A stretch of DNA of 64,000 nucleotides from Escherichia coli (GTDB lineage: Bacteria; Pseudomonadota; Gammaproteobacteria; Enterobacterales; Enterobacteriaceae): the NCBI RefSeq assembly GCF_022846255.1, contig NZ_AP025682.1; one strand, written 5' to 3'. Positions 26,501 through 59,314 of the stretch are shown in pieces (position 1 is the stretch's first letter; every line of letters begins with the position of its first letter). Made by a program: the position numbers and the translations under genes. The notes under the pieces are model-generated. The model did not search any database, was not told where the DNA came from, and saw nothing but the letters and a program-made list of their open reading frames with translations.

Positions 26501-26523
26501 TCCTCTCCTCCCTTTCTTCTGCC

Positions 26524-26552: not shown

Positions 26553-26646
26553 GCGCTTGCTTAAAAATCCTTTAATATCAATAAACTGAAATGATTCAAC
26601 AATCCTGTTTCTCGAGGCTTTCTCACCCTGTCACCACGCTTCTAAG

Positions 26647-26662
26647 TGTGATAGCCAGCACA
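26647..26662. promoter_or_regulatory. CRP-like site TGTGA-N6-GCACA upstream of the kinase-transporter operon
   Basis: tgtgatagccagcaca; 4/5 + 5/5 match to the CRP half-sites TGTGA/TCACA; about 190 bp upstream of the kinase start. Confidence 0.35.
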
Positions 26663-26728
26663 TTTGATGATTTTTTCTCTAGCTCAGGAAGAATAATCTG
26701 GCTAAGGTATAAATAAATAATCAGCATC

Positions 26729-26740
26729 GAATATATATTC
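26729..26740. promoter_or_regulatory. Second copy of the GAATATATATTC palindrome; candidate operator of the kinase-transporter-dehydrogenase operon
   Basis: Direct reading; identical 12-bp core to 25369..25380. Confidence 0.45.
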
Positions 26741-26850
26741 ACGCCTTAACACAAAATGTCACAGCAGGGCCTGATGAAGTAATAACGTGACCATGAGGAA
26801 CGCCTCATCTCCTTCCACGCCAGGATGCAATGTGACTCAGGAGACTACCT

Positions 26851-28371: not shown

Positions 28372-28474
28372 CGAACAAGACTAACCAACGGAAGGAGAAT
28401 ACCGGCCCATAAATAATTCAGGCTTTACGTTGTTTCACCGTACCCGACAATAACAACACAGAGAGAACATTGTC

Positions 28475-29410
28475 ATGAAATTACGTTTAACACTGTTAAC
28501 CGCTGCGACCCTGACTGCTCTTTCTTTTTCTGCTCATGCGGTAGAAAAAGGAACCATTATGATTATGGTCAATTCACTGGATAATCCTTATTACGCCTCG
28601 GAAGCGAAAGGTGCCAGTGAAAAAGCCCAGCAACTGGGATATAAAACGACCATTCTTTCTCATGGTGAAGATGTCAAAAAACAGAATGAACTGATCGATA
28701 CTGCAATTGGTAAAAAAGTTCAGGGCATTATTTTAGATAATGCCGACTCCACTGCCAGTGTTGCAGCCATTGAAAAAGCAAAAAAAGCAGGTATTCCCGT
28801 TATATTAATTAATCGCGAAATACCTGTGGATGATGTTGCACTGGTGCAAATTACCCATAATAACTTCCAGGCTGGCTCGGAAGTTGCCAACGTATTTGTC
28901 GAGAAAATGGGAGAGAAAGGAAAATATGCCGAACTCACCTGTAATCTTGCTGATAATAATTGCGTAACTCGCTCGAAATCTTTCCATCAGGTCATTGACC
29001 AGTTCCCTGAAATGGTCAGCGTGGCGAAGCAAGATGCCAAAGGCACGTTAATTGATGGCAAACGGATAATGGACAGTATTCTGCAAGCCCATCCCGATGT
29101 AAAAGGGGTGATTTGTGGTAATGGTCCGGTTGCACTGGGAGCTATCGCAGCACTGAAAGCAGCCAATCGCAATGACGTTATTGTTGTCGGCATTGATGGC
29201 AGTAACGATGAGCGCGATGCCGTGAAAGCCGAATCATTGCAGGCTACCGTGATGTTACAAGCGCAAGCCATTGCCGCGCAGGGGGTTACCGATTTGGATA
29301 ATTACCTGCAAAAAGGAGTTAAACCAGCCAAACAGCGGGTGATGTTCCGCGGCATTCTGATAACCAAAGATAACGCAGATAAAGTCCAGGATTTCAATAT
29401 CAAATCCTGA
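28475..29410 (+). CDS. Periplasmic sugar-binding protein of an ABC transporter (RbsB-like)
   Basis: 311 aa with signal peptide MKLRLTLLTAATLTALSFSAHA; periplasmic binding protein type I fold. Confidence 0.85.
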   Translation: MKLRLTLLTAATLTALSFSAHAVEKGTIMIMVNSLDNPYYASEAKGASEKAQQLGYKTTILSHGEDVKKQNELIDTAIGKKVQGIILDNADSTASVAAIEKAKKAGIPVILINREIPVDDVALVQITHNNFQAGSEVANVFVEKMGEKGKYAELTCNLADNNCVTRSKSFHQVIDQFPEMVSVAKQDAKGTLIDGKRIMDSILQAHPDVKGVICGNGPVALGAIAALKAANRNDVIVVGIDGSNDERDAVKAESLQATVMLQAQAIAAQGVTDLDNYLQKGVKPAKQRVMFRGILITKDNADKVQDFNIKS

Positions 29411-29456
29411 TCCCAGGTCGTTGCGCCCTCACAATGAGGGCGCAGAGGAGAATATT

Positions 29457-30077
29457 ATGGATAAAAAAGTCTGGCTGGCGCTGGCAATTCTGAGCCTGGG
29501 TGGATGTCGCATCGTCTCGCAGCAGGAACTTGCCGATCTCAAATCCCCGCCTAATCCTCATATGGCAAATATCGATCAGACCTGGCAGAAAAATATCGTG
29601 CCGCAGGTGGTAGAAAATGCACGTCCGGTTGCGGAGTTAATGGCGGCGCTACAGGCAGAAAAAGATGTCGATGCTGCCTGTAAAACGCTGGGCTATCGTT
29701 CTCAGGAAGAAAACCCGTGTATTTTCTACGTTAAGGTCGAAGGTGGCATCACCAATATTGATGCGAAATCCCGTAGCGGAAAAATGACCATCACAGATAT
29801 CAGCGGCACAAATATTGTCGTGCAGACGGGGCCAACTCTTCGCGGCACGCTTCTGCGAGATGCATATAAAGGTGCAAGCTATGAGCATTTTAACGATCAG
29901 GTTTTATTTGGTGAATATGGTCGTGCTATCAATGAGCAAGCCATCAATATGATTCAGTCGGCAAAGCTTAAAACCGGGGAAACGGTTCAGGTTTATGGCG
30001 TATTTTCTGCATGGGATATTCCGCAAACTATCCCGGATATAACGCCTGCGAAAATAGCCAGGGCGGGAGGCGAGTAA
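29457..30077 (+). CDS. DUF2291-like predicted lipoprotein embedded in the ABC transporter operon
   Basis: MDKKVWLALAILSLGGC... with a lipobox LSLGGC; start chosen at the internal Met with the signal peptide rather than the track start at 29421. Confidence 0.65.
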   Translation: MDKKVWLALAILSLGGCRIVSQQELADLKSPPNPHMANIDQTWQKNIVPQVVENARPVAELMAALQAEKDVDAACKTLGYRSQEENPCIFYVKVEGGITNIDAKSRSGKMTITDISGTNIVVQTGPTLRGTLLRDAYKGASYEHFNDQVLFGEYGRAINEQAINMIQSAKLKTGETVQVYGVFSAWDIPQTIPDITPAKIARAGGE

Positions 30078-30078
30078 T

Positions 30079-31623
30079 ATGTTGCCGCAAGAAATTGACA
30101 CCCCCCAGACTGATGAATCACCTGTAATCATAGAAACGCATGACTTATCGCGTATTTATCCGGGTGTGGTGGCGTTAGATAACGTGAATTACCGTGTCTA
30201 TCGCAATAGAGTGAATGTGCTTATTGGTGAAAACGGTGCGGGTAAATCCACAATGATGAAAATGCTGGCGGGGGTTGAAACACCTTCCTCAGGCAAGATC
30301 ATTCTTGATGGTAAAGAAGTTACCCTAAATTCTACCCATCAGGCCGAAAAACATGGAATTAGTATCATTTTTCAGGAACTGAATTTATTCCCGAATATGA
30401 ATGTCATAGATAACATTTTCATGGCGAATGAATTTTTTCAGAAAGGGAAGATTAACGAAAAATATCAGTATGAATTAGCCAAATCTTTATTAGAGAGACT
30501 GGAGTTGGACGTTGATCCCTATACCCAACTGGGAGAACTTGGTATTGGTCATCAGCAACTGGTGGAGATTGCCCGTGCCCTTTCTAAAGATACCCGGGTA
30601 CTGATTATGGATGAACCGACCTCGGCCCTCAGCCAGTCGGAAGTCAAAGTACTTTTCAATGTGATCGCACAACTGAAGCGCCGTGGTGTCACCATCATTT
30701 ATATCTCCCACCGTCTGGAAGAGTTGATGGAGATTGGCGATTTCATCACCATTTTCCGTGATGGTCGCTTTATTAGTGAACGCGCAGTGAGCGATGCCAG
30801 TATTCCGTGGATCATCGCACAAATGGTCGGTGATAAGAAAAAACATTTTGATTATCAACCAGCTACACAAGGTGACACTGTACTGGCGGTACTGGGGTTA
30901 ACGGCGCTGCATCCCAGCGGTGGTTACAAACTCAATGATGTGACATTCAACCTGCGTAAAGGCGAAGTTATCGGCATTTACGGCTTGCTGGGCGCAGGAC
31001 GTACTGAGCTATTTAAAGGACTGGTGGGCCTGATGCCCTGTCAGAGTGGGAAGATCCTGCTTAATGGTGAAACCATCGACAAATGCCATTTCCAGGCGCG
31101 GCTCAAAAAGGGGCTGGCGTTGGTGCCAGAAGATCGCCAGGGCGAAGGCGTCGTTCAGATGATGTCGATTCAGTCCAATATGACGCTATCCGATTTCAGC
31201 CTGCAAGGTTTTCGCCGTGCCTGGAAATGGCTGAATCCGCAAAAAGAGAGCGCCAGTGTGAAAGAGATGATCCAGCAACTGGCGATCAAAGTCAGTGATG
31301 CCGAACTCCCTATTACCTCACTCAGCGGCGGTAACCAGCAAAAAGTGGTACTTGGCAAAGCGTTGATGACCCAGCCACAGGTGGTGTTTCTTGATGAACC
31401 CACACGCGGCATTGATGTTGGCGCAAAAACCGACGTCTATCAGCTGGTGGGAAAAATGGCACAACAGGGGCTGGCAGTCATGTTCTCTTCTTCAGAACTC
31501 GATGAAGTCATGGCACTGGCAGATCGCATTCTGGTGATGGCTGATGGCCGTATTACCGCTGATCTACCCCGGGGCGAAGTCACCCGAGAGAAACTGATCG
31601 CGGCTTCAACACCTCAAGATTAA
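30079..31623 (+). CDS. Sugar ABC transporter ATPase with duplicated ATP-binding domains (RbsA-like)
   Basis: 514 aa; Walker A GENGAGKST in the first half, a second nucleotide-binding domain, signature LSGGNQQK. Confidence 0.9.
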   Translation: MLPQEIDTPQTDESPVIIETHDLSRIYPGVVALDNVNYRVYRNRVNVLIGENGAGKSTMMKMLAGVETPSSGKIILDGKEVTLNSTHQAEKHGISIIFQELNLFPNMNVIDNIFMANEFFQKGKINEKYQYELAKSLLERLELDVDPYTQLGELGIGHQQLVEIARALSKDTRVLIMDEPTSALSQSEVKVLFNVIAQLKRRGVTIIYISHRLEELMEIGDFITIFRDGRFISERAVSDASIPWIIAQMVGDKKKHFDYQPATQGDTVLAVLGLTALHPSGGYKLNDVTFNLRKGEVIGIYGLLGAGRTELFKGLVGLMPCQSGKILLNGETIDKCHFQARLKKGLALVPEDRQGEGVVQMMSIQSNMTLSDFSLQGFRRAWKWLNPQKESASVKEMIQQLAIKVSDAELPITSLSGGNQQKVVLGKALMTQPQVVFLDEPTRGIDVGAKTDVYQLVGKMAQQGLAVMFSSSELDEVMALADRILVMADGRITADLPRGEVTREKLIAASTPQD

Positions 31624-31640
31624 TCAGGCTGGAATTTCTT

Positions 31641-32708
31641 ATGAATCAGAAATATATGATCTATATGTACCTGTTGAAAGCCAGAACGTTTATCGCTCTG
31701 CTGTTAGTGATCGCCTTCTTTAGCGTGATGGTGCCTAACTTCCTGACGGCCTCTAACCTGCTGATTATGACTCAACACGTTGCGATTACCGGGCTGCTGG
31801 CAATCGGAATGACGCTGGTGATCCTGACAGGCGGCATCGATCTTTCCGTCGGCGCGGTAGCGGGGATCTGCGGAATGGTTGCCGGGGCTCTGCTAACAAA
31901 CGGCCTGCCATTGTGGAGCGGCGATATTATTTTCTTCAACGTACCGGAAGTGATCCTCTGCGTGGCGGTATTTGGCATTTTAGTGGGACTGGTGAATGGT
32001 GCGGTAATCACCCGCTTTGGTGTCGCGCCCTTTATCTGCACCCTCGGTATGATGTACGTCGCCCGTGGCTCTGCCCTGCTGTTTAATGATGGCAGCACTT
32101 ACCCCAATCTCAACGGCATGGAGGCACTGGGCAACACGGGTTTCGCCACCCTTGGTTCTGGCACGTTTTTAGGCGTTTATTTGCCAATCTGGCTGATGAT
32201 TGGCTTTTTGATTTTAGGCTACTGGATCACGACTAAAACGCCGCTCGGTCGTTATATCTATGCCATTGGTGGCAATGAATCTGCCGCGCGACTGGCAGGC
32301 GTACCCATCGTAAAAGTCAAAGTGTTCGTCTATGCGTTCTCCGGATTATGCGCCGCATTTGTCGGTTTGATTGTTGCCTCGCAGCTGCAAACCGCTCACC
32401 CAATGACCGGCAATATGTTCGAAATGGATGCTATCGGTGCCACGGTTCTTGGTGGAACTGCGCTGGCAGGTGGTCGGGGACGTGTCTCTGGCTCGATTAT
32501 CGGTGCCTTTGTCATTGTCTTCCTCGCCGATGGCATGGTGATGATGGGGGTCAGTGATTTCTGGCAAATGGTCATTAAAGGCCTCGTTATCGTCACCGCC
32601 GTGGTAGTCGATCAGTTCCAGCAAAAATTGCAAAACAAAGTCATTTTGATGCGTCGCCATGAAGAAAAGATGGCCGCCGCACCTGCCGTAAAACCGCTTT
32701 CCAGTTAA
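31641..32708 (+). CDS. Sugar ABC transporter permease (RbsC-like)
   Basis: 355 aa polytopic membrane protein of the monosaccharide ABC permease family. Confidence 0.85.
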   Translation: MNQKYMIYMYLLKARTFIALLLVIAFFSVMVPNFLTASNLLIMTQHVAITGLLAIGMTLVILTGGIDLSVGAVAGICGMVAGALLTNGLPLWSGDIIFFNVPEVILCVAVFGILVGLVNGAVITRFGVAPFICTLGMMYVARGSALLFNDGSTYPNLNGMEALGNTGFATLGSGTFLGVYLPIWLMIGFLILGYWITTKTPLGRYIYAIGGNESAARLAGVPIVKVKVFVYAFSGLCAAFVGLIVASQLQTAHPMTGNMFEMDAIGATVLGGTALAGGRGRVSGSIIGAFVIVFLADGMVMMGVSDFWQMVIKGLVIVTAVVVDQFQQKLQNKVILMRRHEEKMAAAPAVKPLSS

Positions 32709-32761
32709 TTAACATCATTCCGCCGGGCATTAAATTGCCCGGCTTATACAGGGGAAAAAAT

Positions 32762-33559
32762 ATGCAACGTAATTTTCAGGGTAAGACTGTAGTTATTACC
32801 GGGGCATGCCGGGGAATTGGGGCCGGGATCGCTGAACGCTTCGCCCGCGATGGCGCAAATCTGGTGATGGTTTCTAACGCTGCACGCGTGCATGAAACTG
32901 CTGAGCAACTGCGCCAATGTTATCAGGCTGACATTTTGTCATTAGAAGTCGATGTGACAGATGAAGCGCAAGTACAGGCACTCTATGAACAAGCGGCTGC
33001 ACGTTTTGGCAGCATCGATGTTTCCATTCAGAATGCAGGCATTATCACCATCGATTATTTTGATCGAATGCCGGCTGCTGATTTCGAAAAAGTGCTGGCG
33101 GTGAACACTACGGCAGTCTGGCTCTGCTGCCGGGAAGCAGCCAAATATATGGTGAAACAAAATCACGGCTGCCTGATCAACACCTCTTCTGGCCAGGGAC
33201 GTCAGGGGTTTATCTATACCCCACACTATGCAGCCAGCAAAATGGGTGTGATCGGCATTACGCAAAGCCTGGCGCACGAGTTAGCGCAGTGGAATATCAC
33301 TGTTAACGCCTTCTGCCCTGGTATTATCGAAAGCGAAATGTGGGACTACAACGACCGCGTATGGGGAGAAATTCTCAGTACCGATGACAAGCGTTATGGC
33401 AAAGGCGAGCTTATGGCGGAATGGGTGGAAGGTATTCCGATGAAGCGTGCCGGTAAACCTGAAGATGTTGCCGGACTGGTTGCCTTCCTCGCCTCTGACG
33501 ATGCGCGTTATCTCACCGGTCAAACCATCAACATCGACGGCGGCCTGATTATGTCGTAA
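32762..33559 (+). CDS. Short-chain dehydrogenase/reductase (polyol / sugar dehydrogenase-like)
   Basis: MQRNFQGKTVVITGACRGIGAGIAERFA...; TGxxxGIG Rossmann motif and catalytic YxxxK; ATG at 32762 preferred over the upstream TTG-initiated track start. Confidence 0.8.
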   Translation: MQRNFQGKTVVITGACRGIGAGIAERFARDGANLVMVSNAARVHETAEQLRQCYQADILSLEVDVTDEAQVQALYEQAAARFGSIDVSIQNAGIITIDYFDRMPAADFEKVLAVNTTAVWLCCREAAKYMVKQNHGCLINTSSGQGRQGFIYTPHYAASKMGVIGITQSLAHELAQWNITVNAFCPGIIESEMWDYNDRVWGEILSTDDKRYGKGELMAEWVEGIPMKRAGKPEDVAGLVAFLASDDARYLTGQTINIDGGLIMS

Positions 33560-33591
33560 TGCCCCTGCGGGCTACTAAGAGAGATATCAAA

Positions 33592-34377
33592 ATGATCGCA
33601 AAAGATTTTGCTCAACAATTGTTTGATCTCCACGATCGCGTCGCCTTTGTCACTGGCGCAGGTAGCGGTATCGGACAAATGATCGCTCTGGCTTTAGCCA
33701 GCGCAGGCGCACGAGTGGTGTGTTTTGATCTACGGGAAGATGGCGGACTCAAAGAGACGGTTAATCATATCGAAGCACTTGGCGGACAAGCCTTGTATTA
33801 CACGGGCGATGTTCGGGAATTGAGAGATCTTCGCGCAGCAGTCGCTCTGGCAAAAACACATTTTGGTCGTCTGGATATTGCCGTAAACGCCGCTGGAATC
33901 GCTAACGCAAACCCGGCGCTGGAGATGGAAAGCGAGCAATGGCAACGCGTTATCGATATCAACCTGACTGGTGTGTGGAATTCCTGTAAGGCGGAAGCCG
34001 AGTTAATGGTAGAGAACGGAGGCGGCTCGATTATAAATATTGCGTCAATGTCCGGGATTATCGTCAATCGCGGTCTGGAACAGGCTCACTACAACAGCTC
34101 CAAAGCAGGCGTGATTCATTTATCTAAAAGTCTTGCGATGGAATGGGTGAGTAAAGGGATCCGTGTGAACTCAATCAGTCCAGGATATACCGCAACACCA
34201 ATGAATACCCGACCTGAAATGGTGCATCAGACTCGGGAGTTTGAAATCCAGACGCCGATTCAGCGGATGGCGAAAGTGGAAGAGATGGCGGGTCCAGCGC
34301 TGTTCCTTGCCAGCGATGCGGCGTCGTTCTGCACTGGTGTTGATCTGGTGGTCGATGGTGGTTTTGTCTGCTGGTAA
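33592..34377 (+). CDS. Second short-chain dehydrogenase/reductase
   Basis: MIAKDFAQQLFDLHDRVAFVTGAGSGIGQMIALALA...; SDR motifs; start at 33592 preferred for its upstream gagag Shine-Dalgarno, with 33559 as alternative. Confidence 0.8.
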   Translation: MIAKDFAQQLFDLHDRVAFVTGAGSGIGQMIALALASAGARVVCFDLREDGGLKETVNHIEALGGQALYYTGDVRELRDLRAAVALAKTHFGRLDIAVNAAGIANANPALEMESEQWQRVIDINLTGVWNSCKAEAELMVENGGGSIINIASMSGIIVNRGLEQAHYNSSKAGVIHLSKSLAMEWVSKGIRVNSISPGYTATPMNTRPEMVHQTREFEIQTPIQRMAKVEEMAGPALFLASDAASFCTGVDLVVDGGFVCW

Positions 34378-34486: not shown

Positions 34487-34639
34487 CTACTTCTTCGGTT
34501 CGTAAGCGAGAACAACCTTAAACTCAATATTACGTTCCTTTACGGTAAACTCACACAGCGAGTCTCCGACCAGAAGCGTAAATCCCAGCACCGTTAAACA
34601 CAGCACTATGACTGCCACAAGGGCATATTTCGTCAGCAT
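34487..34639 (-). CDS. hokE: Hok-family small membrane toxin, copy 1 (variant with V at the position where copy 2 has A)
   Basis: [50 protein letters not shown], 50 aa; Hok family signature; overlapped by mok-like ORF 34551..34739. Confidence 0.8.
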
Positions 34640-34739
34640 GTTTATATTGCCTCCATGCGAAGAAGGGACTACCATCCAAATTGTTCAGGTTTGGGTAGGT
34701 AGCCCCAAGGTTGATAGAAATATCGTCCTGGGGCTTCAT
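34551..34739 (-). CDS. mokE: mok-like overlapping reading frame, copy 1
   Basis: 62-aa ORF overlapping the hok start in a different frame, as in hok/mok/sok loci. Confidence 0.5.
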
Positions 34740-34990
34740 CTTTCCAGACCTCAGAGTAAACCTGAAACCGGAAAGCTTCAGGCACCCGCAGTTATCTTAC
34801 CCTTCCTTAGCAAAATAGCTGTTTATTTATACAGTGAGTCCTGTTTAGGACTTTTCACCTGTATTATCGCCCATGCCAGTAAAACGAAATCGCCCGCAGC
34901 CATCTCTGACTGCGGGCGAAAGTGTAAAGCAGGTGCCTTACCATCCTGACCTGACAACCGGATATGCGGGGATTACTCCCCGCACAACGG

Positions 34991-35143
34991 CTACTTCTTC
35001 GGTTCGTAAGCGAGAACAGCCTTAAACTCAATATTACGTTCCTTTACGGTAAACTCACACAGCGAGTCTCCGACCAGAAGCGTAAATCCCAGCACCGTTA
35101 AACACAGCACTATGACTGCCACAAGGGCATATTTCGTCAGCAT
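34991..35143 (-). CDS. hokE: Hok-family small membrane toxin, copy 2
   Basis: [50 protein letters not shown], 50 aa; the copy adjacent to ybdK. Confidence 0.85.
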
Positions 35144-35243
35144 GTTTATATTGCCTCCATGCGAAGAAGGGACTACCATCCAAATTGTTCAGGTTTGGGT
35201 AGGTAGCCCCAGGGTTGATAGAAATATCGTCCTGGGGCTTCAT
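35055..35243 (-). CDS. mokE: mok-like overlapping reading frame, copy 2
   Basis: 62-aa ORF overlapping the hok start in a different frame. Confidence 0.5.
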
Positions 35244-35579
35244 CTTTCCAGACCTCAGAGTAAACCTGAAACCGGAAAGCTTCAGGCACCCGCAGTTATC
35301 TTACCCTTCCTTAGCAAAATAGCTGTTTATTTATACAGTGAGTCCTGTTTCGGACTTCTCATTTAATCAACTGAAGCTGAACCCGTTTTTTTCTGCATGC
35401 CTCAATCGTCAAAATTCTTCGCCGCCAGCCAGCTCTGCCATAACTTGTCACATTGCAAAAGTAGCCAAATTGCTTCAGTCACAATCAGTTCTCCATCACC
35501 AAAAAAAGAAACATTCCAGAACTTCCGCATCTCACCCAGCCGCTCCCACTTCTATACTGAATAGAAAACGCCAACATAA

Positions 35580-49602: not shown

Positions 49603-49751
49603 TCCTTCAGCAAACGGCAACTTTTATAACCAGTGTAAAAATAACATGCCGCAATAGTAATACCTATTAATGATAAAAAGCTGTCACAATTCATAAAAAA
49701 CCTTAATATACGCCACCCTAAACATAACCAGCGTTAATGTAAGGTTTTTGT

Positions 49752-51989
49752 GTGGACTGGCTTCTTGATGTTTTTGCTACCTGGCTCTACGGCTTAAAAG
49801 TAATCGCGATAACGTTAGCGGTCATTATGTTCATCAGCGGGCTGGACGATTTTTTTATTGATGTCGTCTACTGGGTACGCCGCATTAAACGCAAGTTGAG
49901 TGTTTATCGCCGCTACCCGCGAATGAGTTACCGCGAACTGTATAAACCAGATGAAAAACCGTTAGCGATTATGGTTCCGGCGTGGAATGAAACGGGCGTC
50001 ATCGGCAATATGGCCGAGCTGGCGGCGACCACGCTCGACTACGAAAACTATCATATCTTTGTTGGCACCTACCCCAACGACCCCGATACTCAGCGTGATG
50101 TTGACGAAGTGTGCGCTCGCTTCCCGAACGTGCATAAGGTAGTCTGCGCGCGTCCTGGCCCCACCAGCAAAGCCGACTGTCTGAACAACGTGCTGGACGC
50201 CATCACCCAATTTGAACGTAGCGCCAATTTCGCTTTTGCTGGTTTTATTCTGCATGACGCCGAAGATGTGATTTCACCGATGGAATTGCGTCTGTTCAAC
50301 TATCTGGTCGAGCGTAAAGATCTGATTCAGATCCCAGTGTATCCGTTCGAACGCGAATGGACGCACTTCACCAGCATGACCTACATTGATGAGTTTTCAG
50401 AACTGCATGGCAAAGATGTTCCGGTGCGTGAAGCCCTCGCCGGACAGGTGCCCAGCGCAGGCGTCGGCACCTGTTTCAGCCGCCGCGCCGTGACCGCACT
50501 GTTAGCTGACGGTGACGGTATTGCTTTCGACGTGCAGAGTCTGACTGAAGATTACGACATTGGCTTCCGCCTGAAAGAGAAAGGTATGACGGAAATTTTT
50601 GTCCGTTTTCCGGTGGTGGACGAAGCCAAAGAACGCGAGCAGCGTAAATTTTTACAGCATGCGCGGACGTCAAACATGATCTGCGTGCGCGAATATTTCC
50701 CCGATACCTTTTCGACTGCGGTTCGGCAAAAATCTCGCTGGATCATCGGCATTGTTTTCCAGGGCTTTAAAACCCACAAATGGACCTCCAGCCTGACGCT
50801 GAACTACTTTCTCTGGCGCGACCGCAAAGGGGCAATCAGTAACTTTGTCAGCTTCCTCGCGATGCTGGTGATGATCCAGCTTTTGCTGTTGCTGGCGTAT
50901 GAAAGTTTGTGGCCCGATGCCTGGCATTTCCTTTCTATTTTCAGCGGCAGCGCATGGTTAATGACTCTGCTGTGGCTAAACTTTGGCTTGATGATTAACC
51001 GCATCGTGCAGCGGGTGATTTTCGTTACTGGCTACTACGGCCTGACGCAGGGGCTGCTATCTGTCCTGCGTCTTTTCTGGGGCAACCTGATTAACTTCAT
51101 GGCCAACTGGCGCGCGTTAAAACAGGTACTTCAACACGGCGATCCACGTCGCGTCGCGTGGGATAAAACAACGCATGACTTCCCCAGCGTGACTGGCGAT
51201 ACCCGCTCGTTGCGTCCGTTAGGTCAAATCCTGCTGGAAAATCAGGTCATCACTGAAGAACAACTCGATACAGCACTGCGTAATCGCGTCGAAGGTCTAC
51301 GCCTGGGCGGTTCAATGCTGATGCAGGGGCTGATTAGCGCCGAGCAACTGGCACAGGCGCTGGCAGAGCAAAACGGCGTGGCGTGGGAATCCATCGATGC
51401 CTGGCAGATCCCTTCCTCGCTGATTGCCGAAATGCCGGCCTCCGTGGCGTTGCATTATGCGGTACTGCCGCTGCGTCTGGACAATGATGAGTTAATTGTC
51501 GGCAGTGAAGATGGTATTGACCCGGTTTCGCTGGCGGCCCTGACGCGTAAAGTCGGACGCAAAGTGCGTTACGTCATTGTTCTGCGGGGACAAATTGTCA
51601 CCGGATTACGCCACTGGTATGCACGCCGACGCGGTCACGATCCGCGGGCAATGTTGTACAATGCAGTTCAGCATCAGTGGCTCACGGAACAGCAGGCCGG
51701 TGAAATCTGGCGGCAATATGTGCCGCATCAGTTCCTGTTCGCAGAAATACTGACCACGCTCGGTCATATTAATCGTTCAGCAATTAACGTGTTGTTATTG
51801 CGCCATGAACGCAGTTCTCTGCCGCTCGGCAAGTTTTTGGTCACCGAAGGCGTTATCAGCCAGGAAACGTTGGATCGCGTCCTGACAATTCAACGCGAAT
51901 TACAAGTTTCGATGCAATCACTATTACTCAAAGCAGGTTTAAACACTGAACAGGTTGCACAACTGGAGTCCGAAAATGAAGGAGAATAA
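49752..51989 (+). CDS. nfrB: Inner-membrane GT2 glycosyltransferase with C-terminal c-di-GMP-binding domain (phage N4 adsorption protein B)
   Basis: 745 aa beginning V/MDWLLDVFATWLYGLKVIAITLAVIMF (likely GTG start); GT2 domain plus C-terminal MshEN-like region. Confidence 0.9.
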   Translation: MDWLLDVFATWLYGLKVIAITLAVIMFISGLDDFFIDVVYWVRRIKRKLSVYRRYPRMSYRELYKPDEKPLAIMVPAWNETGVIGNMAELAATTLDYENYHIFVGTYPNDPDTQRDVDEVCARFPNVHKVVCARPGPTSKADCLNNVLDAITQFERSANFAFAGFILHDAEDVISPMELRLFNYLVERKDLIQIPVYPFEREWTHFTSMTYIDEFSELHGKDVPVREALAGQVPSAGVGTCFSRRAVTALLADGDGIAFDVQSLTEDYDIGFRLKEKGMTEIFVRFPVVDEAKEREQRKFLQHARTSNMICVREYFPDTFSTAVRQKSRWIIGIVFQGFKTHKWTSSLTLNYFLWRDRKGAISNFVSFLAMLVMIQLLLLLAYESLWPDAWHFLSIFSGSAWLMTLLWLNFGLMINRIVQRVIFVTGYYGLTQGLLSVLRLFWGNLINFMANWRALKQVLQHGDPRRVAWDKTTHDFPSVTGDTRSLRPLGQILLENQVITEEQLDTALRNRVEGLRLGGSMLMQGLISAEQLAQALAEQNGVAWESIDAWQIPSSLIAEMPASVALHYAVLPLRLDNDELIVGSEDGIDPVSLAALTRKVGRKVRYVIVLRGQIVTGLRHWYARRRGHDPRAMLYNAVQHQWLTEQQAGEIWRQYVPHQFLFAEILTTLGHINRSAINVLLLRHERSSLPLGKFLVTEGVISQETLDRVLTIQRELQVSMQSLLLKAGLNTEQVAQLESENEGE

Positions 51990-54948
51990 CCTTAATCGCG
52001 TCATCGGATGGTCTGGTTTACTGCTGACATCTTTATTGAGTACCAGCGCACTCGCAGACAATATCGGCACCAGCGCAGAAGAGCTGGGGCTGAGCGATTA
52101 TCGCCATTTTGTTATTTATCCCCGTCTCGATAAGGCGCTGAAGGCACAGAAAAATAACGACGAAGCAACCGCCATCCGCGAATTTGAATATATACACCAG
52201 CAGGTGCCGGATAATATTCCGCTGACTTTATACCTTGCGGAAGCCTATCGCCATTTTGGTCATGATGACCGGGCGCGGCTGTTGCTTGAGGATCAACTGA
52301 AACGTCACCCTGGAGATGATCGGCTTGAGCGCAGTCTGGCGGCTATTCCTGTTGAAGTGAAAAGCGTTACGACTGTTGAAGAACTGCTTGCCCAGCAAAA
52401 AGCGTGCGATGCTGCGCCGACCCTGCGTTGTCGCAGTGAAGTCGGGCAGAATGCCCTGCGGCTGGCACAATTACCTGTCGCCAGAGCGCAACTGAACGAT
52501 GCGACGTTTGCTGCATCGCCGGAAGGAAAAACGCTGCGAACCGATCTGCTGCAACGCGCAATCTACCTGAAACAATGGTCCCAGGCAGATACGCTATACA
52601 ATGAAGCACGCCAGCAGAACACATTAAGCGCGGCAGAACGCCGTCAGTGGTTTGACGTGCTTCTTGCCGGGCAGCTGGACGATCGGATCCTGGCGCTGCA
52701 ATCACAGGGGATCTTCACCGATCCTCAGTCATATATTACTTACGCGACCGCGCTGGCTTATCGTGGCGAAAAAGCACGCCTCCAGCATTATCTCATTGAA
52801 AATAAGCCGCTGTTTACCACGGACGCACAAGAGAAAAGTTGGCTCTATCTGTTATCTAAATACAGCGCCAACCCCGTTCAGGCGTTGGCGAATTATACGG
52901 TACAGTTTGCCGACAACCGCCAGTATGTTGTTGGCGCGACGCTACCGGTGCTGTTAAAAGAAGGTCAGTACGGCGCAGCGCAAAAACTGCTCGCCACCCT
53001 CCCCGCCAATGAAATGCTTGAGGAGCGTTATACCGTTAGCGTAGCGACCCATAACAAGGCTGAAGCTCTGCGTCTGGCACGATTGCTGTATCAGCAAGAA
53101 CCGGCAAATCTTACCCGCCTGGATCAACTGACCTGGCAACTGATGCAGAACGAACAGTCACGCGAAGCTGCCGATTTATTGCTGCAACGCTATCCTTTCC
53201 AGGGCGATGCGCGTGTCAGCCAGACTTTAATGGCGCGACTGGCGTCTCTGCTGGAAAGTCATCCTTACCTGGCAACGCCGGCGAAGGTGGCGATTTTATC
53301 GAAACCCTTACCGCTGGCGGAGCAACGTCAGTGGCAAAGTCAGTTGCCGGGTATTGCAGATAATTGCCCGGCAATAGTTCGCTTGCTGGGCGATATGTCG
53401 CCTTCCTACGATGCCGCCGCCTGGAACCGTCTGGCAAAGTGTTATCGGGACACGCTACCCGGTGTGGCGTTGTATGCATGGCTTCAGGCCGAACAACGAC
53501 AACCGAACGCCTGGCAACATCGTGCGGTAGCCTATCAGGCGTATCAGGTTGAGGACTACGCCACCGCACTGGCGGCATGGCAGAAAATCAGTCTTCACGA
53601 CATGAGCAATGAGGATCTGCTTGCTGCTGCCAATACCGCCCAGGCGGCAGGAAATGGTGCGGCTCGCGATCGCTGGCTTCAGCAGGCAGAACAACGTGGG
53701 CTGGGAAACAATGCCCTCTACTGGTGGCTGCATGCGCAACGTTACATTCATGGTCAGCCGGAACTCGCACTGAACGATCTCACGCGCTCAATCAATATTG
53801 CGCCTTCTGCCAACGCTTACGTTGCGCGGGCAACAATTTATCGCCAACGTCATAATATCCCGGCGGCGGTGAGTGATTTGCGCGCCGCGCTGGAACTGGA
53901 ACCGAATAATAGCAACACCCAGGCAGCGCTTGGTTACGCCTTGTGGGATAGCGGTGATATCGCACAGTCGCGGGAAATGCTCGAACAGGCGCATAAAGGG
54001 CTACCGGACGATCCGGCACTTATCCGACAACTGGCCTACGTGAACCAGCGTCTGGATGACATGCCTGCGACGCAGCACTACGCCCGGCTGGTGATTGATG
54101 ACATTGATAATCAGGCGCTGATAACCCCACTGACCCCAGAGCAAAATCAGCAACGCTTCAATTTCCGCCGTCTGCATGAGGAGGTCGGTCGCCGCTGGAC
54201 GTTCAGTTTCGATTCTTCTATCGGCTTGCGTTCCGGCGCAATGAGTACCGCTAACAATAATGTCGGCGGCGCAGCGCCAGGGAAAAGCTATCGTAGCTAC
54301 GGGCAACTGGAAGCCGAGTATCGCATCGGACGCAATATGCTGCTGGAAGGCGACCTGCTCTCGGTTTACAGCCGTGTATTTGCCGATACCGGAGAAAACG
54401 GGGTGATGATGCCGGTGAAAAATCCGATGTCCGGCACCGGTCTGCGCTGGAAGCCGCTGCGCGATCAGATCTTTTTCCTCACCGTCGAACAGCAGTTGCC
54501 GCTGAACGGCCAAAATGGTGCATCCGATACCATGCTGCGCGCCAGCGCCTCATTCTTTAATGGCGGCAAATACAGCGACGAATGGCACCCGAACGGTTCA
54601 GGCTGGTTTGCCCAAAACCTGTACCTCGATGCAGCGCAATATATCCGCCAGGATATTCAGGCGTGGACGGCAGATTATCGCGTCAGCTGGCATCAGAAGG
54701 TAGCTAACGGACAGACTATTGAGCCTTACGCTCACGTTCAGGACAACGGCTATCGTGATAAAGGCACTCAGGGCGCGCAGCTTGGCGGTGTCGGGGTCCG
54801 CTGGAATATCTGGACCGGCGAGACGCACTACGACGCCTGGCCGCACAAAGTCAGTCTCGGCGTCGAGTATCAACATACCTTTAAGGCGATTAATCAACGT
54901 AACGGAGAGCGCAACAATGCGTTTCTCACCATTGGAGTGCACTGGTAA
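51976..54948 (+). CDS. nfrA: Outer-membrane TPR-containing protein (phage N4 adsorption protein A)
   Basis: MKENNLNRVIGWSGLLLTSLLSTSALADNIG... with signal peptide; start trimmed to give 990 aa; overlaps the nfrB 3' end by 14 bp. Confidence 0.9.
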   Translation: MKENNLNRVIGWSGLLLTSLLSTSALADNIGTSAEELGLSDYRHFVIYPRLDKALKAQKNNDEATAIREFEYIHQQVPDNIPLTLYLAEAYRHFGHDDRARLLLEDQLKRHPGDDRLERSLAAIPVEVKSVTTVEELLAQQKACDAAPTLRCRSEVGQNALRLAQLPVARAQLNDATFAASPEGKTLRTDLLQRAIYLKQWSQADTLYNEARQQNTLSAAERRQWFDVLLAGQLDDRILALQSQGIFTDPQSYITYATALAYRGEKARLQHYLIENKPLFTTDAQEKSWLYLLSKYSANPVQALANYTVQFADNRQYVVGATLPVLLKEGQYGAAQKLLATLPANEMLEERYTVSVATHNKAEALRLARLLYQQEPANLTRLDQLTWQLMQNEQSREAADLLLQRYPFQGDARVSQTLMARLASLLESHPYLATPAKVAILSKPLPLAEQRQWQSQLPGIADNCPAIVRLLGDMSPSYDAAAWNRLAKCYRDTLPGVALYAWLQAEQRQPNAWQHRAVAYQAYQVEDYATALAAWQKISLHDMSNEDLLAAANTAQAAGNGAARDRWLQQAEQRGLGNNALYWWLHAQRYIHGQPELALNDLTRSINIAPSANAYVARATIYRQRHNIPAAVSDLRAALELEPNNSNTQAALGYALWDSGDIAQSREMLEQAHKGLPDDPALIRQLAYVNQRLDDMPATQHYARLVIDDIDNQALITPLTPEQNQQRFNFRRLHEEVGRRWTFSFDSSIGLRSGAMSTANNNVGGAAPGKSYRSYGQLEAEYRIGRNMLLEGDLLSVYSRVFADTGENGVMMPVKNPMSGTGLRWKPLRDQIFFLTVEQQLPLNGQNGASDTMLRASASFFNGGKYSDEWHPNGSGWFAQNLYLDAAQYIRQDIQAWTADYRVSWHQKVANGQTIEPYAHVQDNGYRDKGTQGAQLGGVGVRWNIWTGETHYDAWPHKVSLGVEYQHTFKAINQRNGERNNAFLTIGVHW

Positions 54949-55839
54949 ATGCGTAAGTTCATTTTCGTATTGCTGACACTGCTTTTGGTCAGCCCTTTTT
55001 CCTTTGCGATGAAAGGTATTATCTGGCAACCACAAAACCGTGATAGTCAGGTTACCGATACCCAGTGGCAGGGGCTGATGAGTCAGTTACGTTTGCAAGG
55101 CTTCGATACCCTGGTTTTGCAATGGACTCGTTACGGCGATGCATTCACCCAGCCAGAACAGCGCGCGTTATTGTTTAAGCGTGCCGCAGCTGCGCAACAG
55201 GCTGGCCTGAAGCTGATTGTCGGGCTGAATGCCGATCCGGAATTTTTTATGCACCAGAAACAGTCGTCTGCAGCGCTGGAAAGCTATCTTAACCGCCTGC
55301 TGGCTGCCGATCTCCAGCAAGCCAGATTATGGAGCGCCGTACCTGGCGTAACGCCGGATGGCTGGTACATCAGCGCGGAAATTGACGACCTGAACTGGCG
55401 CAGCGAAGCCGCCCGTCAGCCTTTGCTAACATGGTTAAACAACGCGCAGCGGTTGATTAGCGATGTTTCAGCAAAACCGGTTTATATCAGTAGTTTTTTC
55501 GCCGGAAACATGTCGCCCGATGGCTATCGCCAACTGCTGGAACACGTTAAAGCAACCGGCGTTAATGTCTGGGTACAGGATGGCAGCGGCGTGGATAAAC
55601 TGACCGCTGAACAGCGTGAACGTTATCTACAGGCCAGCGCCGATTGCCAAAGCTCCGCCCCAGCAAGCGGCATTGTTTATGAACTGTTTGTCGCCGGCAA
55701 AGGCAAAACCTTTACAGCGAAACCGAAACCGGACGCAGAAATTGCCTCGCTGTTAGCGAAACGTTCCTCTTGCGGTAAAGACACGCTCTATTTCTCTCTG
55801 CGCTATTTGCCCGTCGCGCACGGCATTCTCGAGTATTAA
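54949..55839 (+). CDS. ybcH: Periplasmic protein YbcH, third gene of the nfrBA-ybcH operon
   Basis: 296 aa with signal peptide MRKFIFVLLTLLLVSPFSFA; start abuts the nfrA stop. Confidence 0.88.
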   Translation: MRKFIFVLLTLLLVSPFSFAMKGIIWQPQNRDSQVTDTQWQGLMSQLRLQGFDTLVLQWTRYGDAFTQPEQRALLFKRAAAAQQAGLKLIVGLNADPEFFMHQKQSSAALESYLNRLLAADLQQARLWSAVPGVTPDGWYISAEIDDLNWRSEAARQPLLTWLNNAQRLISDVSAKPVYISSFFAGNMSPDGYRQLLEHVKATGVNVWVQDGSGVDKLTAEQRERYLQASADCQSSAPASGIVYELFVAGKGKTFTAKPKPDAEIASLLAKRSSCGKDTLYFSLRYLPVAHGILEY

Positions 55840-56021
55840 ATCTCCTCCAGGTAAGTCGGGTACGACCTGGCTTACCTCTTTCGCTCTCGTCAAAATTCCA
55901 TCAAGATTAATTGCTAAAAAGCGTGCTAAAGAAAGAAGATCGTTATCGGCGAACGGGCCGATCACTCATGCAGGAAGCATAGATCCTTTGAGCGGAGTTT
56001 CTGATATCTGAGGAGTGCGAA

Positions 56022-56783
56022 ATGCAATTGAGCAGCAGTGAACCTTGCGTGGTGATCCTGACCGAAAAAGAGGTAGAGGTAAGCGTCAATAACCATGCTA
56101 CGTTTACCCTTCCGAAAAACTACCTGGCCGCCTTCGCGTGCAACAATAACGTCATTGAACTCTCAACGTTAAATCACGTATTAATCACCCACATCAACCG
56201 TAACATCATCAACGATTATCTGTTGTTTTTAAATAAGAACTTAACCTGTATAAAGCCCTGGTCGCGGCTGGCAACTCCGGTTATCGCTTGTCATAGCCGT
56301 ACACCGGAAGTGTTCCGGCTAGCCGCCAACCACAGCAAGCAGCAACCCAGCAAACCCTGCGAAGCGGAGTTGACGCGCGCATTGCTTTTTACCGTATTGT
56401 CTAACTTTCTTGAGCAATCGCGGTTTATTGCCCTACTGATGTATATCTTACGCAGCAGCGTCCGCGACAGCGTCTGCCGCATTATTCAAAGCGATATTCA
56501 GCATTACTGGAATCTGCGAATTGTCGCCAGTTCGCTATGTTTAAGCCCCAGCCTGCTCAAAAAGAAATTAAAAAACGAAAATACCAGCTATAGCCAGATT
56601 GTCACAGAGTGTCGTATGCGTTACGCCGTACAGATGTTATTGATGGATAACAAAAATATCACTCAGGTGGCGCAATTATGTGGCTATAGCAGCACGTCGT
56701 ACTTTATCTCTGTTTTTAAGGCGTTTTACGGCCTGACACCGTTGAATTATCTCGCCAAACAGCGACAAAAAGTGATGTGGTGA
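56022..56783 (+). CDS. envY: AraC-family transcriptional regulator (envelope porin regulator EnvY)
   Basis: 253 aa; C-terminal AraC HTH (NITQVAQLCGYSSTSYFISVFKAFYGLTPLNYL); position next to ybcH as in K-12. Confidence 0.8.
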   Translation: MQLSSSEPCVVILTEKEVEVSVNNHATFTLPKNYLAAFACNNNVIELSTLNHVLITHINRNIINDYLLFLNKNLTCIKPWSRLATPVIACHSRTPEVFRLAANHSKQQPSKPCEAELTRALLFTVLSNFLEQSRFIALLMYILRSSVRDSVCRIIQSDIQHYWNLRIVASSLCLSPSLLKKKLKNENTSYSQIVTECRMRYAVQMLLMDNKNITQVAQLCGYSSTSYFISVFKAFYGLTPLNYLAKQRQKVMW

Positions 56784-56827
56784 AGAGCAAAGCGGAACGG
56801 ATAAGACGGGATTAAATGAAGAAGAAA

Positions 56828-56904
56828 TGGCGCGCCCTGCAGGATTCGAACCTGCGGCCCACGACTTAGAAGGTCGTTGCTCTATCCAACTGAGCTAAGG
56901 GCGC
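56828..56904 (-). tRNA. argU: tRNA-Arg (UCU), argU
   Basis: The reverse complement reads GCGCCCTTAGCTCAGTTGGATAGAGCAACGACCTTCTAAGTCGTGGGCCGCAGGTTCGAATCCTGCAGGGCGCGCCA: cloverleaf with TCT anticodon and CCA end. Confidence 0.95.
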
Positions 56905-57145
56905 GTTGATACCGCAATGCGGTGTAATCGCGTGAATTATACGGTCAACCCTTGCTGAGTCAATGGCTTTTGATCTGGTTGCTGAACAAGTGAACGACCG
57001 CGTCTGATTTTCTGATTTATTTCGTTATAGCGGCAAACAAACGCACACCGCTGCGCGTCTGAATCAAGAAAACCCGTATTTTCATGTATCAAGTACAATT
57101 TACCGCCCTAACGGAAAATTGTCCGATCCAATGAGACTGGTAACT

Positions 57146-57778
57146 ATGAAACCAACGTCGGTGATCATTATGGATACTCATCCTATCATCAGAATGTCTA
57201 TTGAAGTTCTGTTGCAAAAAAACAGTGAATTGCAGATTGTCCTGAAAACGGATGATTACCGCATAACCATCGATTATCTCCGAACCCGTCCTGTTGATTT
57301 AATCATTATGGATATAGACTTGCCCGGTACAGACGGTTTTACCTTCCTGAAAAGGATCAAACAAATTCAGAGTACAGTGAAAGTATTATTTTTATCATCG
57401 AAATCAGAATGCTTTTATGCTGGCAGAGCGATACAAGCTGGTGCTAACGGTTTTGTCAGTAAATGCAATGATCAGAATGATATTTTTCATGCCGTTCAGA
57501 TGATCCTCTCCGGATACACTTTTTTTCCCAGCGAAACGCTCAACTATATAAAAAGCAATAAATGTAGTATGAATAGTTCAACGGTCACTGTGCTATCTAA
57601 TCGTGAAGTAACCATATTACGTTATCTGGTTAGCGGATTATCTAATAAAGAAATTGCCGATAAGTTATTACTTAGCAATAAAACAGTTAGTGCACATAAA
57701 TCTAATATTTATGGCAAGCTAGGTTTGCATTCAATTGTAGAGCTTATCGACTACGCCAAATTATATGAATTAATATAA
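57146..57778 (+). CDS. fimZ: LuxR/FixJ-family response regulator controlling fimbrial expression
   Basis: MKPTSVIIMDTHPIIRMSIEVLLQKNSELQIVLKTDDYRITIDYLRTRPVDLIIMDIDLPGTDGF...; C-terminal LuxR HTH; start trimmed to give 210 aa. Confidence 0.92.
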   Translation: MKPTSVIIMDTHPIIRMSIEVLLQKNSELQIVLKTDDYRITIDYLRTRPVDLIIMDIDLPGTDGFTFLKRIKQIQSTVKVLFLSSKSECFYAGRAIQAGANGFVSKCNDQNDIFHAVQMILSGYTFFPSETLNYIKSNKCSMNSSTVTVLSNREVTILRYLVSGLSNKEIADKLLLSNKTVSAHKSNIYGKLGLHSIVELIDYAKLYELI

Positions 57779-57780
57779 TA

Positions 57781-58296
57781 TTAATTATAATTGATCATAA
57801 ATATCGCATCCGCTTTCGCCACACCAGGCTGAACACCGCTGGCTAACGCTCGATAATTGGCAAAAAAGTTTAGTGTGACATTGCCATTTGCATCAACTTC
57901 CTCAGTCGAGCTCGCCTCCCCCAGTGCGAGCCGGGAGCGATCGCTATTACGTAATTCGATGGCGACGGTTTGTGCCATTGCGGGATCATCCAGAGCCAGC
58001 AGGTTGGCATCAGATGCCGGCGTTCCCGTAAATAAAATCGCAACTGAACCCGGAGGACATCCCTCCAGCCGCAGGCTAAAAGGGACGAGTGCCGTGGTAT
58101 CGCCAGCGCTCAGTAATTGTGTCGTAGGCCATCTGCCTAAATCTACCGTCTTATCCTTATCCGCTGTGTTTACGGTACAGGAGAAATCAACAACGTTACC
58201 GTGCAAATTGATATTAATCGTTCCTAAAGGGTCAACTGCCCATCCACTGGAACTCCACAGTAGCCCGCAGAAACAGCTAAAGAGTACTCTTCTCAT
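57781..58296 (-). CDS. sfmF: Fimbrial minor subunit (FimF-like)
   Basis: MRRVLFSCFCGLLWSSSGWAVDPLGTININLHGNVVDFSCTVNTADKDKTVDLG...; fimbrial subunit fold; start trimmed from the track ORF. Confidence 0.88.
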   Translation of the reverse strand: MRRVLFSCFCGLLWSSSGWAVDPLGTININLHGNVVDFSCTVNTADKDKTVDLGRWPTTQLLSAGDTTALVPFSLRLEGCPPGSVAILFTGTPASDANLLALDDPAMAQTVAIELRNSDRSRLALGEASSTEEVDANGNVTLNFFANYRALASGVQPGVAKADAIFMINYN

Positions 58297-58306
58297 TCTC
58301 CGTACC

Positions 58307-59314
58307 TCATTGATAATCGACGCGTAAATACCCCAGCGCGCTAAACGGCCCTTCGGTCGGTTTTTGACCGGTAATACTGATAGGCCAGGCGCGAAGTGTG
58401 ACATTGGCTGCCGCAGCTGCATCCAGACGGAAAGGAATAACGCTATTGAGATCATTAGGCGTGATCGGCGTATCGTTCTGATCGGCCACAATAAAACCTA
58501 AATCCTGATTGTCCGACACCATCGCCTGACCAGAAACGGCGCTGGCTTCCAGACGCATTGTTAAATAAGCCTGCGCAGCAACATTCGTACATTTGATCGC
58601 AATGCTCTTGGTTTGCGGCATGACACCAGCTGGTCGATTCCCCGGCCCTGCCGCACTAAATAACGATGCGCCGATATCACCAAAATCAAATTCAACAATT
58701 TGCCCGGCATTTAATTCGCAGTTTTGCGGTACTTCAACCCGGCCACCAAAACTAATGGTATAAACAGGTGTAACCAACGGATCGTTAGGCGTTGATGTCA
58801 CATACACGGTAAACATCACCTGTCTGGGGATCTCCACCATGTTAATAAAGGGACGAATAACCTTTAAACGAAATATCAAATGAGAATCCATCACCCCGAA
58901 CGGAAGGTTTTGCGAAACGTTAGGATCTGTTCCCATACGAATATAATTTTGCGGAGGGAATTGAATATCCATCACGCTATCAACCAGACTCATCGCACCT
59001 AATAGATAATCATTTAATTGCATATATTTATAATTATCGATAGTTTCCTGAACAATAAAGTTGGTGACATAACTACGGTATGTATAATTCACCAGCGTGC
59101 CGGGTGGACAAATTGCTGATACACCTACCCAGCCGGATTTTTCCGGTAAAACAACAATCTGCCCTGGCTGGTTATTGGGGCTATTAAAGACATTTGAGAG
59201 ATCATAGTGTTCATCTTCTGCTACGCCAGTACTATTTGCACAAACAGTAGCCCAGGATATGTTTGTTAACCACAAACATGCCATCGCCAATAATAATCTG
59301 CAGATTATCTTCAT
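58307..59314 (-). CDS. sfmH: Fimbrial tip adhesin-like subunit (FimH-like)
   Basis: ~327-335 aa with signal peptide and two-domain adhesin/pilin organisation; exact start uncertain. Confidence 0.88.
   Translation of the reverse strand: MKIICRLLLAMACLWLTNISWATVCANSTGVAEDEHYDLSNVFNSPNNQPGQIVVLPEKSGWVGVSAICPPGTLVNYTYRSYVTNFIVQETIDNYKYMQLNDYLLGAMSLVDSVMDIQFPPQNYIRMGTDPNVSQNLPFGVMDSHLIFRLKVIRPFINMVEIPRQVMFTVYVTSTPNDPLVTPVYTISFGGRVEVPQNCELNAGQIVEFDFGDIGASLFSAAGPGNRPAGVMPQTKSIAIKCTNVAAQAYLTMRLEASAVSGQAMVSDNQDLGFIVADQNDTPITPNDLNSVIPFRLDAAAAANVTLRAWPISITGQKPTEGPFSALGYLRVDYQ

Follow-up and report, generated by a model that had tools for sequence, protein, structure and literature searches.

The locus at positions 49752-55839 raises the question of whether this Escherichia coli strain retains an intact nfrB-nfrA-ybcH gene set, known as the receptor locus of phage N4, and how far the sequence bears on phage susceptibility. 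In the window, which is the whole 64,000-nucleotide stretch of DNA analyzed here, the region is occupied by three open reading frames on one strand, nfrB, nfrA, and ybcH, which were taken from the ORF listing with their junctions read directly (Table 1). Reading of these frames revealed no frameshift or internal stop, and the product lengths of 745, 990, and 296 aa are the same as in the annotations of K-12 MG1655 and strain E7-1N7, in line with the intactness claimed by the first-pass annotation. That annotation had also described nfrA as overlapping nfrB by 14 bp and ybcH as starting at the nfrA stop, and both statements were borne out: the overlap is exactly 14 nt (51976-51989, + strand), and the second junction reads TAAATG, with the ybcH ATG on the base after the stop and a 0-nt spacer. 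Its general wording of "overlapping gene junctions" holds for nfrB/nfrA but not for nfrA/ybcH, which abut. Both junctions, each with a Shine-Dalgarno sequence inside the gene ahead of it, are consistent with joint transcription and coupled translation, and we infer that the three genes are translationally coupled.

Table 1. Features of the nfrB-nfrA-ybcH locus and its surroundings, in window coordinates
Feature	Position	Strand	Description
cusS-nfrB intergenic region	49603-49751	+	149 nt, A+T-rich; presumed operon promoter site
Shine-Dalgarno of nfrB	49741-49744	+	AAGG, 7 nt ahead of GTG
nfrB	49752-51989	+	GTG start, TAA stop 51987-51989; 745 aa
NfrB GT2 catalytic domain	49959-50897	+	aa 70-382; Pfam PF13632 E 2e-40, PF13641 E 3.5e-35
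NfrB c-di-GMP-binding MshEN region	51213-51635	+	aa 488-628; NF053729 and PF05157
Shine-Dalgarno of nfrA	51965-51968	+	GGAG, within nfrB
nfrA	51976-54948	+	ATG 51976, TAA 54946-54948; 990 aa
NfrA predicted 12-stranded transmembrane beta-barrel	54196-54945	+	aa 741-989; from predicted structure
Shine-Dalgarno ahead of ybcH	54934-54937	+	GGAG, within nfrA
ybcH	54949-55839	+	ATG 54949, TAA 55837-55839; 296 aa
YbcH N-terminal hydrophobic signal or anchor		+	aa 1-20 of the ybcH product
Stem-loop	55849-55877	+	13 bp, 9 nt past the ybcH stop; -20.8 kcal/mol, z = -3.1 against shuffles

All three proteins exceed their NCBIfam equivalog cutoffs (1332 against 1170, 1887 against 1223, and 522 against 344 bits for NfrB, NfrA, and YbcH, respectively), scores which place the identification far beyond chance, and nothing in the sequence speaks against it. 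With high confidence, the region is an intact nfrB-nfrA-ybcH operon of E. coli and encodes a three-gene synthase-dependent exopolysaccharide system. The description of the locus as the N4 receptor locus and as a c-di-GMP-controlled exopolysaccharide locus agrees with the studies of the system under the name Nfr/NGR by Junkermeier & Hengge 2021 (PMC8669469) and Sellner et al. 2021 (PMC8669472), and its earlier label of established biology is apt. The 14-nt overlap is also already in print (PMC8669469).

The K-12 operon (b0569-b0567) has the same genes, order, product lengths, 14-nt overlap, and abutting second junction, and the flanks also correspond, with cusRS upstream and envY downstream. 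Past envY, K-12 carries ompT, appY, and the DLP12 prophage, all of which are missing from this strain. Nucleotide identity to K-12 is 98.3-98.4% in nfrB and nfrA, with all functionally tested residues kept; the 35, 52, and 23 nucleotide differences in nfrB, nfrA, and ybcH lead to only 2, 12, and 5 amino acid changes (743/745, 978/990, and 291/296 residues identical). These mostly synonymous changes indicate that the three genes are under purifying selection. The two substitutions in NfrB are V415I and E577D (K-12 residue first). The exact NfrB protein occurs on at least 1000 public contigs under the same name and the exact YbcH protein also on at least 1000, while the NfrA allele, although already deposited, is found on only two. 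The cusS-nfrB spacer differs from both K-12 and E7-1N7 at three positions (49646, 49659, and 49673). A strain-specific promoter variant was considered and rejected, as many E. coli, ATCC 11775 among them, have the upstream sequence (201 nt) at 100% identity; the differences from the K-12 operon are only allelic.

The locus is present at ≥80% in one place, annotated as nfrB/nfrA/ybcH, in 5047 of the 5426 complete E. coli genomes (about 93%), its best match among them reaching 99.2% identity. The best match of the 25-kb neighborhood among complete RefSeq genomes is 98.5%, so the strain is not closely represented, and divergence of the locus as an unusual signal was rejected because its surroundings are equally or more divergent. 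Beyond E. coli, the three genes follow one another in this order, with junctions of 1-4 nt, in Pragia fontium and Rhodanobacter terrae, and in the latter an Epimerase_2 (WecB-type) gene precedes the set.

NfrB matches the c-di-GMP-activated glycosyltransferase equivalog NF008411 at 1332.4 bits over residues 7-728 of 745. The GT2 and MshEN domains, which the first-pass annotation had expected, were both recovered by domain search, as well as a c-di-GMP motif domain. A motif check located the signatures of processive GT2 synthases, including D169 in the DxD region, T265-E266-D267 (TED), and Q326-K-S-R-W330 (QxxRW), of which D169, D267, and W330 were proven essential by mutagenesis (PMC8669469). 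The other three experimentally tested residues named in that paper, L490, G491, and L537, lie in the c-di-GMP region, so that all six are retained. This region comprises the motif domain (NF053729 of NCBIfam, residues 489-540 in two stretches, 66 bits against a cutoff of 38) and the MshEN domain proper (PF05157, residues 542-628, 53 bits against 23.1), and carries two tandem 24-residue motifs, RPLGQILLENQVITEEQLDTALRN and RLGGSMLMQGLISAEQLAQALAEQ. These tandem motifs of NfrB have the form RLGxx(L/V/I)(L/V/I)xxG(L/V/I)(L/V/I)xxxxLxxxLxxQ, and a PDB sequence search with NfrB returned MshEN domains only, the c-di-GMP-binding N-terminal domains of the type IV pilus ATPases MshE/PilB/PilF aligning with residues 487-628 (E 5e-17 to 2e-5). 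The domain is N-terminal and sits on a secretion ATPase in those proteins, whereas in NfrB it is C-terminal and controls a glycosyltransferase. From its domains and motifs, NfrB is predicted to be an inner-membrane c-di-GMP-activated family-2 glycosyltransferase; the K-12 protein binds c-di-GMP with a Kd of about 1 uM and is activated by DgcJ (PMC8669469).

NfrA matches NF007302 along residues 1-990, with the NfrA_C domain (PF13283, 226 bits) at 809-977 and TPR families at 60-123 and 519-708, TPR_19 and TPR_14 being above cutoff; a PDB sequence search returned generic TPR proteins only. A signal peptide of about aa 1-27, with cleavage between ALA and D, is likely as read from the sequence without a tool. 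The C-terminal domain is predicted to form an outer-membrane beta-barrel of 12 strands, which would be smaller than the 16-stranded barrel of PgaA.

This arrangement resembles the cellulose (BcsA/B/Z/C), PNAG (PgaABCD), Pel (PelB-G), and alginate systems, which possess an inner-membrane processive GT2 synthase under c-di-GMP control like NfrB, an outer-membrane protein that, like NfrA, joins TPR repeats in the periplasm to a beta-barrel (predicted in NfrA), and a periplasmic protein of glycoside-hydrolase fold in the same operon like YbcH (fold predicted). Domain searches of the three operon genes found no inner-membrane co-polymerase partner of the BcsB, PgaD, or Alg44 type. Nfr works like this synthase-dependent class yet forms a branch of its own, one that already has a name.

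YbcH matches NF007404 over its full length at 521.6 bits and PF14488 (DUF4434) at 233.8 bits. Its predicted structure is a (beta/alpha)8 barrel of the glycoside-hydrolase type (pLDDT 92), whose best structural neighbors are all glycosidases, among them the hydrolase domain of PgaB from a further synthase-dependent system. E144 on strand beta4 and E245 at the end of beta7 are invariant in 48 homologues, down to 42% identity, and are placed as expected for acid/base and nucleophile in the 4/7 superfamily. YbcH may therefore be a periplasmic glycoside-hydrolase-type enzyme with a role like that of BcsZ or the PgaB C-terminal domain in related systems. We tentatively propose, at somewhat less than an even chance, that it is an active clan-GH-A-type periplasmic glycosidase (E144 as acid/base, E245 as nucleophile) which trims or releases poly-ManNAc NGR, and that NfrA exports the glycan via an unusually narrow 12-stranded barrel related to the KdgM/NanC oligosaccharide porins.

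In the published model YbcH is instead a "periplasmatic putative scaffold protein" (PMC8669469), and a non-catalytic scaffold or anchor is a plausible reading that stops a little short of probable. Deletion of ybcH leaves N4 infection possible and suppresses the motility phenotype only in part (PMC8669469). No sequence relative of YbcH with a solved structure or demonstrated activity was found, a PDB sequence search gave no match, and a literature search found no functional study of DUF4434 or YbcH as a hydrolase. Sequence identity to glycosidases of clan GH-A, for example the PgaB GH153 domain and GH5 mannanases, and to BT_0435 (PDB 4h41, a structural-genomics entry named "putative alpha-L-fucosidase"), which are among the closest known counterparts, is only 7-15%. 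Moreover, Ala precedes E144, whereas Asn-Glu is typical on beta4 in clan GH-A. Against a scaffold stand the predicted barrel with its glycosidase neighbors and the invariant glutamate pair, while dispensability is common for such hydrolases as well, BcsZ and PslG being typical cases.

According to previous studies (PMC8669469, PMC8669472, and PMC10118264), from which the c-di-GMP binding, the dependence on DgcJ and WecB, the dependence of N4, and the operon status are also known, the MshEN domain of inner-membrane NfrB would bind c-di-GMP made locally by the diguanylate cyclase DgcJ, which would switch on the N-terminal GT2 domain. This domain would polymerize UDP-ManNAc, the product of WecB, into NGR, a glycan that is probably poly-N-acetylmannosamine and whose chemical identity is inferred in the literature only. 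The chain would then pass the periplasm and exit via the TPR/beta-barrel protein NfrA, with YbcH presumably as an auxiliary periplasmic protein. NGR would act as the primary receptor for N4 and several other phages, N4 engaging NfrA next. The classical view, in which N4 uses the NfrA protein itself as receptor instead of a glycan and requires NfrB only because NfrA function depends on it, lives on in the database names "bacteriophage N4 adsorption protein A/B", and in published models NfrA still has a place as the secondary receptor, bound irreversibly (PMC10118264). [quoted passage not shown]

A second doubt concerns the strain rather than the receptor, namely that the intact sequence has no phenotypic relevance here, owing to a dgcJ or wecB defect, to PdeL keeping local c-di-GMP low, or to O-antigen or capsule masking the glycan. 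According to the literature, susceptibility also depends on wecB and dgcJ, and pdeL blocks it, so an intact nfr locus is necessary, not sufficient, for N4 sensitivity. None of these three genes was seen among the window ORFs and annotations examined; they lie elsewhere in the genome, and N4 susceptibility is therefore not inferable from the window. Lesions in nfrB or dgcJ occur in some E. coli, all B strains among them, and pdeL expression protects fully (PMC8669472). The state of other loci of this strain is not to be assumed either, given the 98.5% identity of its best complete RefSeq relative over 25 kb. On the other side, UTI89, which is encapsulated and O-antigen-bearing, is still infected in a manner dependent on wecB and c-di-GMP (PMC8669472), and the nfr genes here are under clear purifying selection, which makes phenotypic irrelevance rather unlikely.

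As for transcription, a sigma-70 consensus scan of the cusS-nfrB spacer gave nothing above chance, and the top match of a custom sigma-28 scan upstream of nfrB (TAAAGTTT-N10-12-GCCGATAA) reached 11/16, which is what 460-nt stretches taken at random from the window typically yield. The FliA dependence of the nfr operon reported in the literature thus has no sequence element to be tied to here, and FliA may act indirectly. Consensus scans brought out no internal promoter or terminator within the three genes and no terminator between the genes or after ybcH, and an Rfam search of 49752-55839 found no RNA family inside. The hairpin past ybcH, which the consensus scan missed because no T-run follows it, is a possible operon terminator or RNA-stabilizing hairpin with a weak U-tract.

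An intact nfrB-nfrA-ybcH locus belongs to textbook knowledge, is what E. coli carries by default, and adds nothing new to the biology. Phages using the NGR glycan, namely N4, Vequintavirinae, and phi92-like phages, require it for infection, and the locus accordingly bears on host-range prediction for this strain as well as on c-di-GMP-controlled production of a surface glycan. The modest additions made here are fold-level hypotheses, drawn from predicted structures only, for the two parts characterized least so far, in which YbcH may be a hydrolase and NfrA may have a barrel of the predicted size. If both were true, DUF4434 would gain a function, which would apply equally to the K-12 system, the allele described here having nothing special, and Nfr would represent a minimal branch of synthase-dependent secretion with a structure distinct from the others.

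The nfrB-nfrA-ybcH set was confirmed at 49752-55839, which, according to the six-frame ORF list, is filled exactly by three consecutive plus-strand ORFs, and the intactness claimed in the first-pass annotation is borne out by three open reading frames whose translations contain no internal stops. Reading of the junction sequence showed that nfrA, starting at its ATG, shares 14 nt with the end of nfrB (TAA 51987-51989), exactly the overlap that had been proposed and one already stated explicitly in the literature (PMC8669469); a GGAG is located within nfrB, 7 nt 5' of this ATG. The term "overlapping gene junctions" applies to nfrB/nfrA but not to nfrA/ybcH, which only abut (TAAATG, with the nfrA TAA at 54946-54948 and no gap before the ybcH ATG), and this is the sole imprecision in how the locus had been headed. 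In K-12 MG1655, the three genes are annotated with equal lengths, and both the 14-nt overlap and the abutting second junction recur there.

Features of the nfr locus and of the remainder of the window
Feature	Position	Strand	Details
ES036 (CssrF) sRNA match	22668-22709	+	42 bits vs gathering score 37.6 (Rfam); just 5' of entD ORF
Carbohydrate-utilisation island	23429-34377		~11 kb; between entD and hok/sok copies
sok antitoxin RNA (Rfam RF01794)	34631-34787	-	full length; 84 bits
sok antitoxin RNA (Rfam RF01794)	35135-35291	-	full length; 86 bits
nfrB	49752-51989	+	745 aa, GTG start; vs K-12, 35 nucleotide and 2 amino-acid differences
nfrA	51955-54948	+	TTG-extended ORF, real ATG 51976; 990 aa; vs K-12, 52 nucleotide and 12 amino-acid differences
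NfrA predicted barrel	54196-54945		aa 741-989
GGAG ahead of ybcH	54934-54937
ybcH	54949-55839	+	296 aa; vs K-12, 23 nucleotide and 5 amino-acid differences
Hairpin	55849-55877		13-bp, 9 nt past ybcH stop codon; -20.8 kcal/mol, z -3.1
envY	56022-56783		after ybcH
tRNA-Arg(TCT)	56828-56904	-	after envY
envY to sfm stretch	56022-59314		fimZ and sfm fimbrial genes directly after the tRNA

All three products match their NCBIfam equivalog models end to end, with scores of 1332 bits for NfrB (cutoff 1170), 1887 bits for NfrA (cutoff 1223), and 522 bits for YbcH (cutoff 344). Both domains expected of NfrB, GT2 and MshEN, were found by Pfam, at residues 70-382 (Glyco_trans_2_3, E 2e-40; Glyco_tranf_2_3, E 3.5e-35) and 542-628, respectively; a two-stretch match to an MshE-related c-di-GMP motif domain (489-540, NCBIfam) is also present, and residues 487-628 match c-di-GMP-binding domains whose structures have been solved in PilF, PilB, and MshE. 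NfrB possesses TED265-267, QKSRW326-330, and two tandem 24-residue MshEN motifs, and keeps D169, D267, W330, L490, G491, and L537, the residues mutated in PMC8669469. NfrA carries NfrA_C (809-977, 226 bits) and several TPR families, and YbcH carries DUF4434 (21-291, 234 bits; Pfam).

These results support the reading of an already known phage N4 receptor and c-di-GMP exopolysaccharide locus, in agreement with previous studies (PMC8669469, PMC8669472). The MshEN domain of NfrB has a Kd of about 1 µM for c-di-GMP, and GT and MshEN mutants of NfrB block N4; DgcJ is a specific requirement and an interaction partner of NfrB, whereas YbcH is dispensable for infection (PMC8669469). The N4 glycan receptor (NGR) is a probable ManNAc polymer needing WecB, and PdeL gives protection (PMC8669472). 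FliA activates the operon, which is expressed in the post-exponential phase (PMC8669469); consensus scans upstream of nfrB gave no σ70 or σ28 match above chance, and no canonical terminator was found 3' of ybcH.

No relatives of YbcH were found by sequence in the PDB. Its AF2 model, built from 48 homologues (pLDDT 92.1), is a (β/α)8 barrel with invariant family residues E144 (β4) and E245 (end of β7), which we take to be the acid/base and nucleophile positions of clan GH-A (4/7 superfamily). YbcH is therefore predicted to have a glycoside-hydrolase-type (β/α)8 fold. In the predicted structure of NfrA, a 12-stranded barrel resembles KdgM/NanC-type oligosaccharide porins more closely than the exporters PgaA, whose barrel has 16 strands, and PelB. 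In the literature, YbcH is described as a scaffold or auxiliary protein (PMC8669469, PMC10118264), and searches on DUF4434 and on YbcH plus hydrolase found no paper proposing hydrolase activity.

Distant YbcH homologues at 44-52% identity are present in Rhodanobacter terrae and Pragia fontium, in the order GT2-MshEN / TPR-NfrA_C / DUF4434 with junctions of 1-4 nt, which agrees with the published phylogenomic analysis (PMC8669469). In the Rhodanobacter terrae stretch L003 (2728-9900; 4-nt overlaps), the cluster is immediately preceded by a WecB-type epimerase gene and followed by HipA-type toxin-antitoxin modules and a reverse-transcriptase-like gene.

Elsewhere in the window, the island encodes a split transketolase (two ORFs), a DeoR/SorC-type regulator, a glycerol-kinase-like FGGY kinase, a ribose-type ABC transporter (binding protein, ATPase, permease), two SDR oxidoreductases, and one 218-aa ORF without assignment; K-12 has hokE/IS186 at this position instead. 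The tandem sok matches imply that a hok/sok type I toxin-antitoxin locus is duplicated. DLP12 prophage, appY, and ompT, which adjoin envY in K-12, are missing here, as they are in strain E7-1N7.

The difference counts against K-12 fit purifying selection. At least 1000 public contigs carry the exact NfrB protein, and at least 1000 the exact YbcH protein, while the exact NfrA allele occurs in two (WP_137501665.1 among them). Best identity to complete E. coli genomes is 99.2% for the locus and only 98.5% for the 25-kb neighbourhood (39001-64000; 5426 RefSeq genomes), and the 201 nt upstream of nfrB are 100% identical in many strains, a pattern that appears to be ordinary E. coli mosaicism; either the neighbourhood is mosaic or the lineage is poorly represented among complete genomes. 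The cusS gene is also notably divergent from K-12 (96.3% nt, 10 aa differences).

The window alone is not enough to infer phage susceptibility, because wecB, dgcJ, and pdeL are encoded outside it. With a 6.4-kb query, the locus was found in 5263 of the 5426 complete E. coli genomes, and intactness is the norm in the species, since 5047 (93%) carry at least 80% of it in one place. Conservation across E. coli has been reported, and the glycan is also used by other phage groups (PMC8669472).
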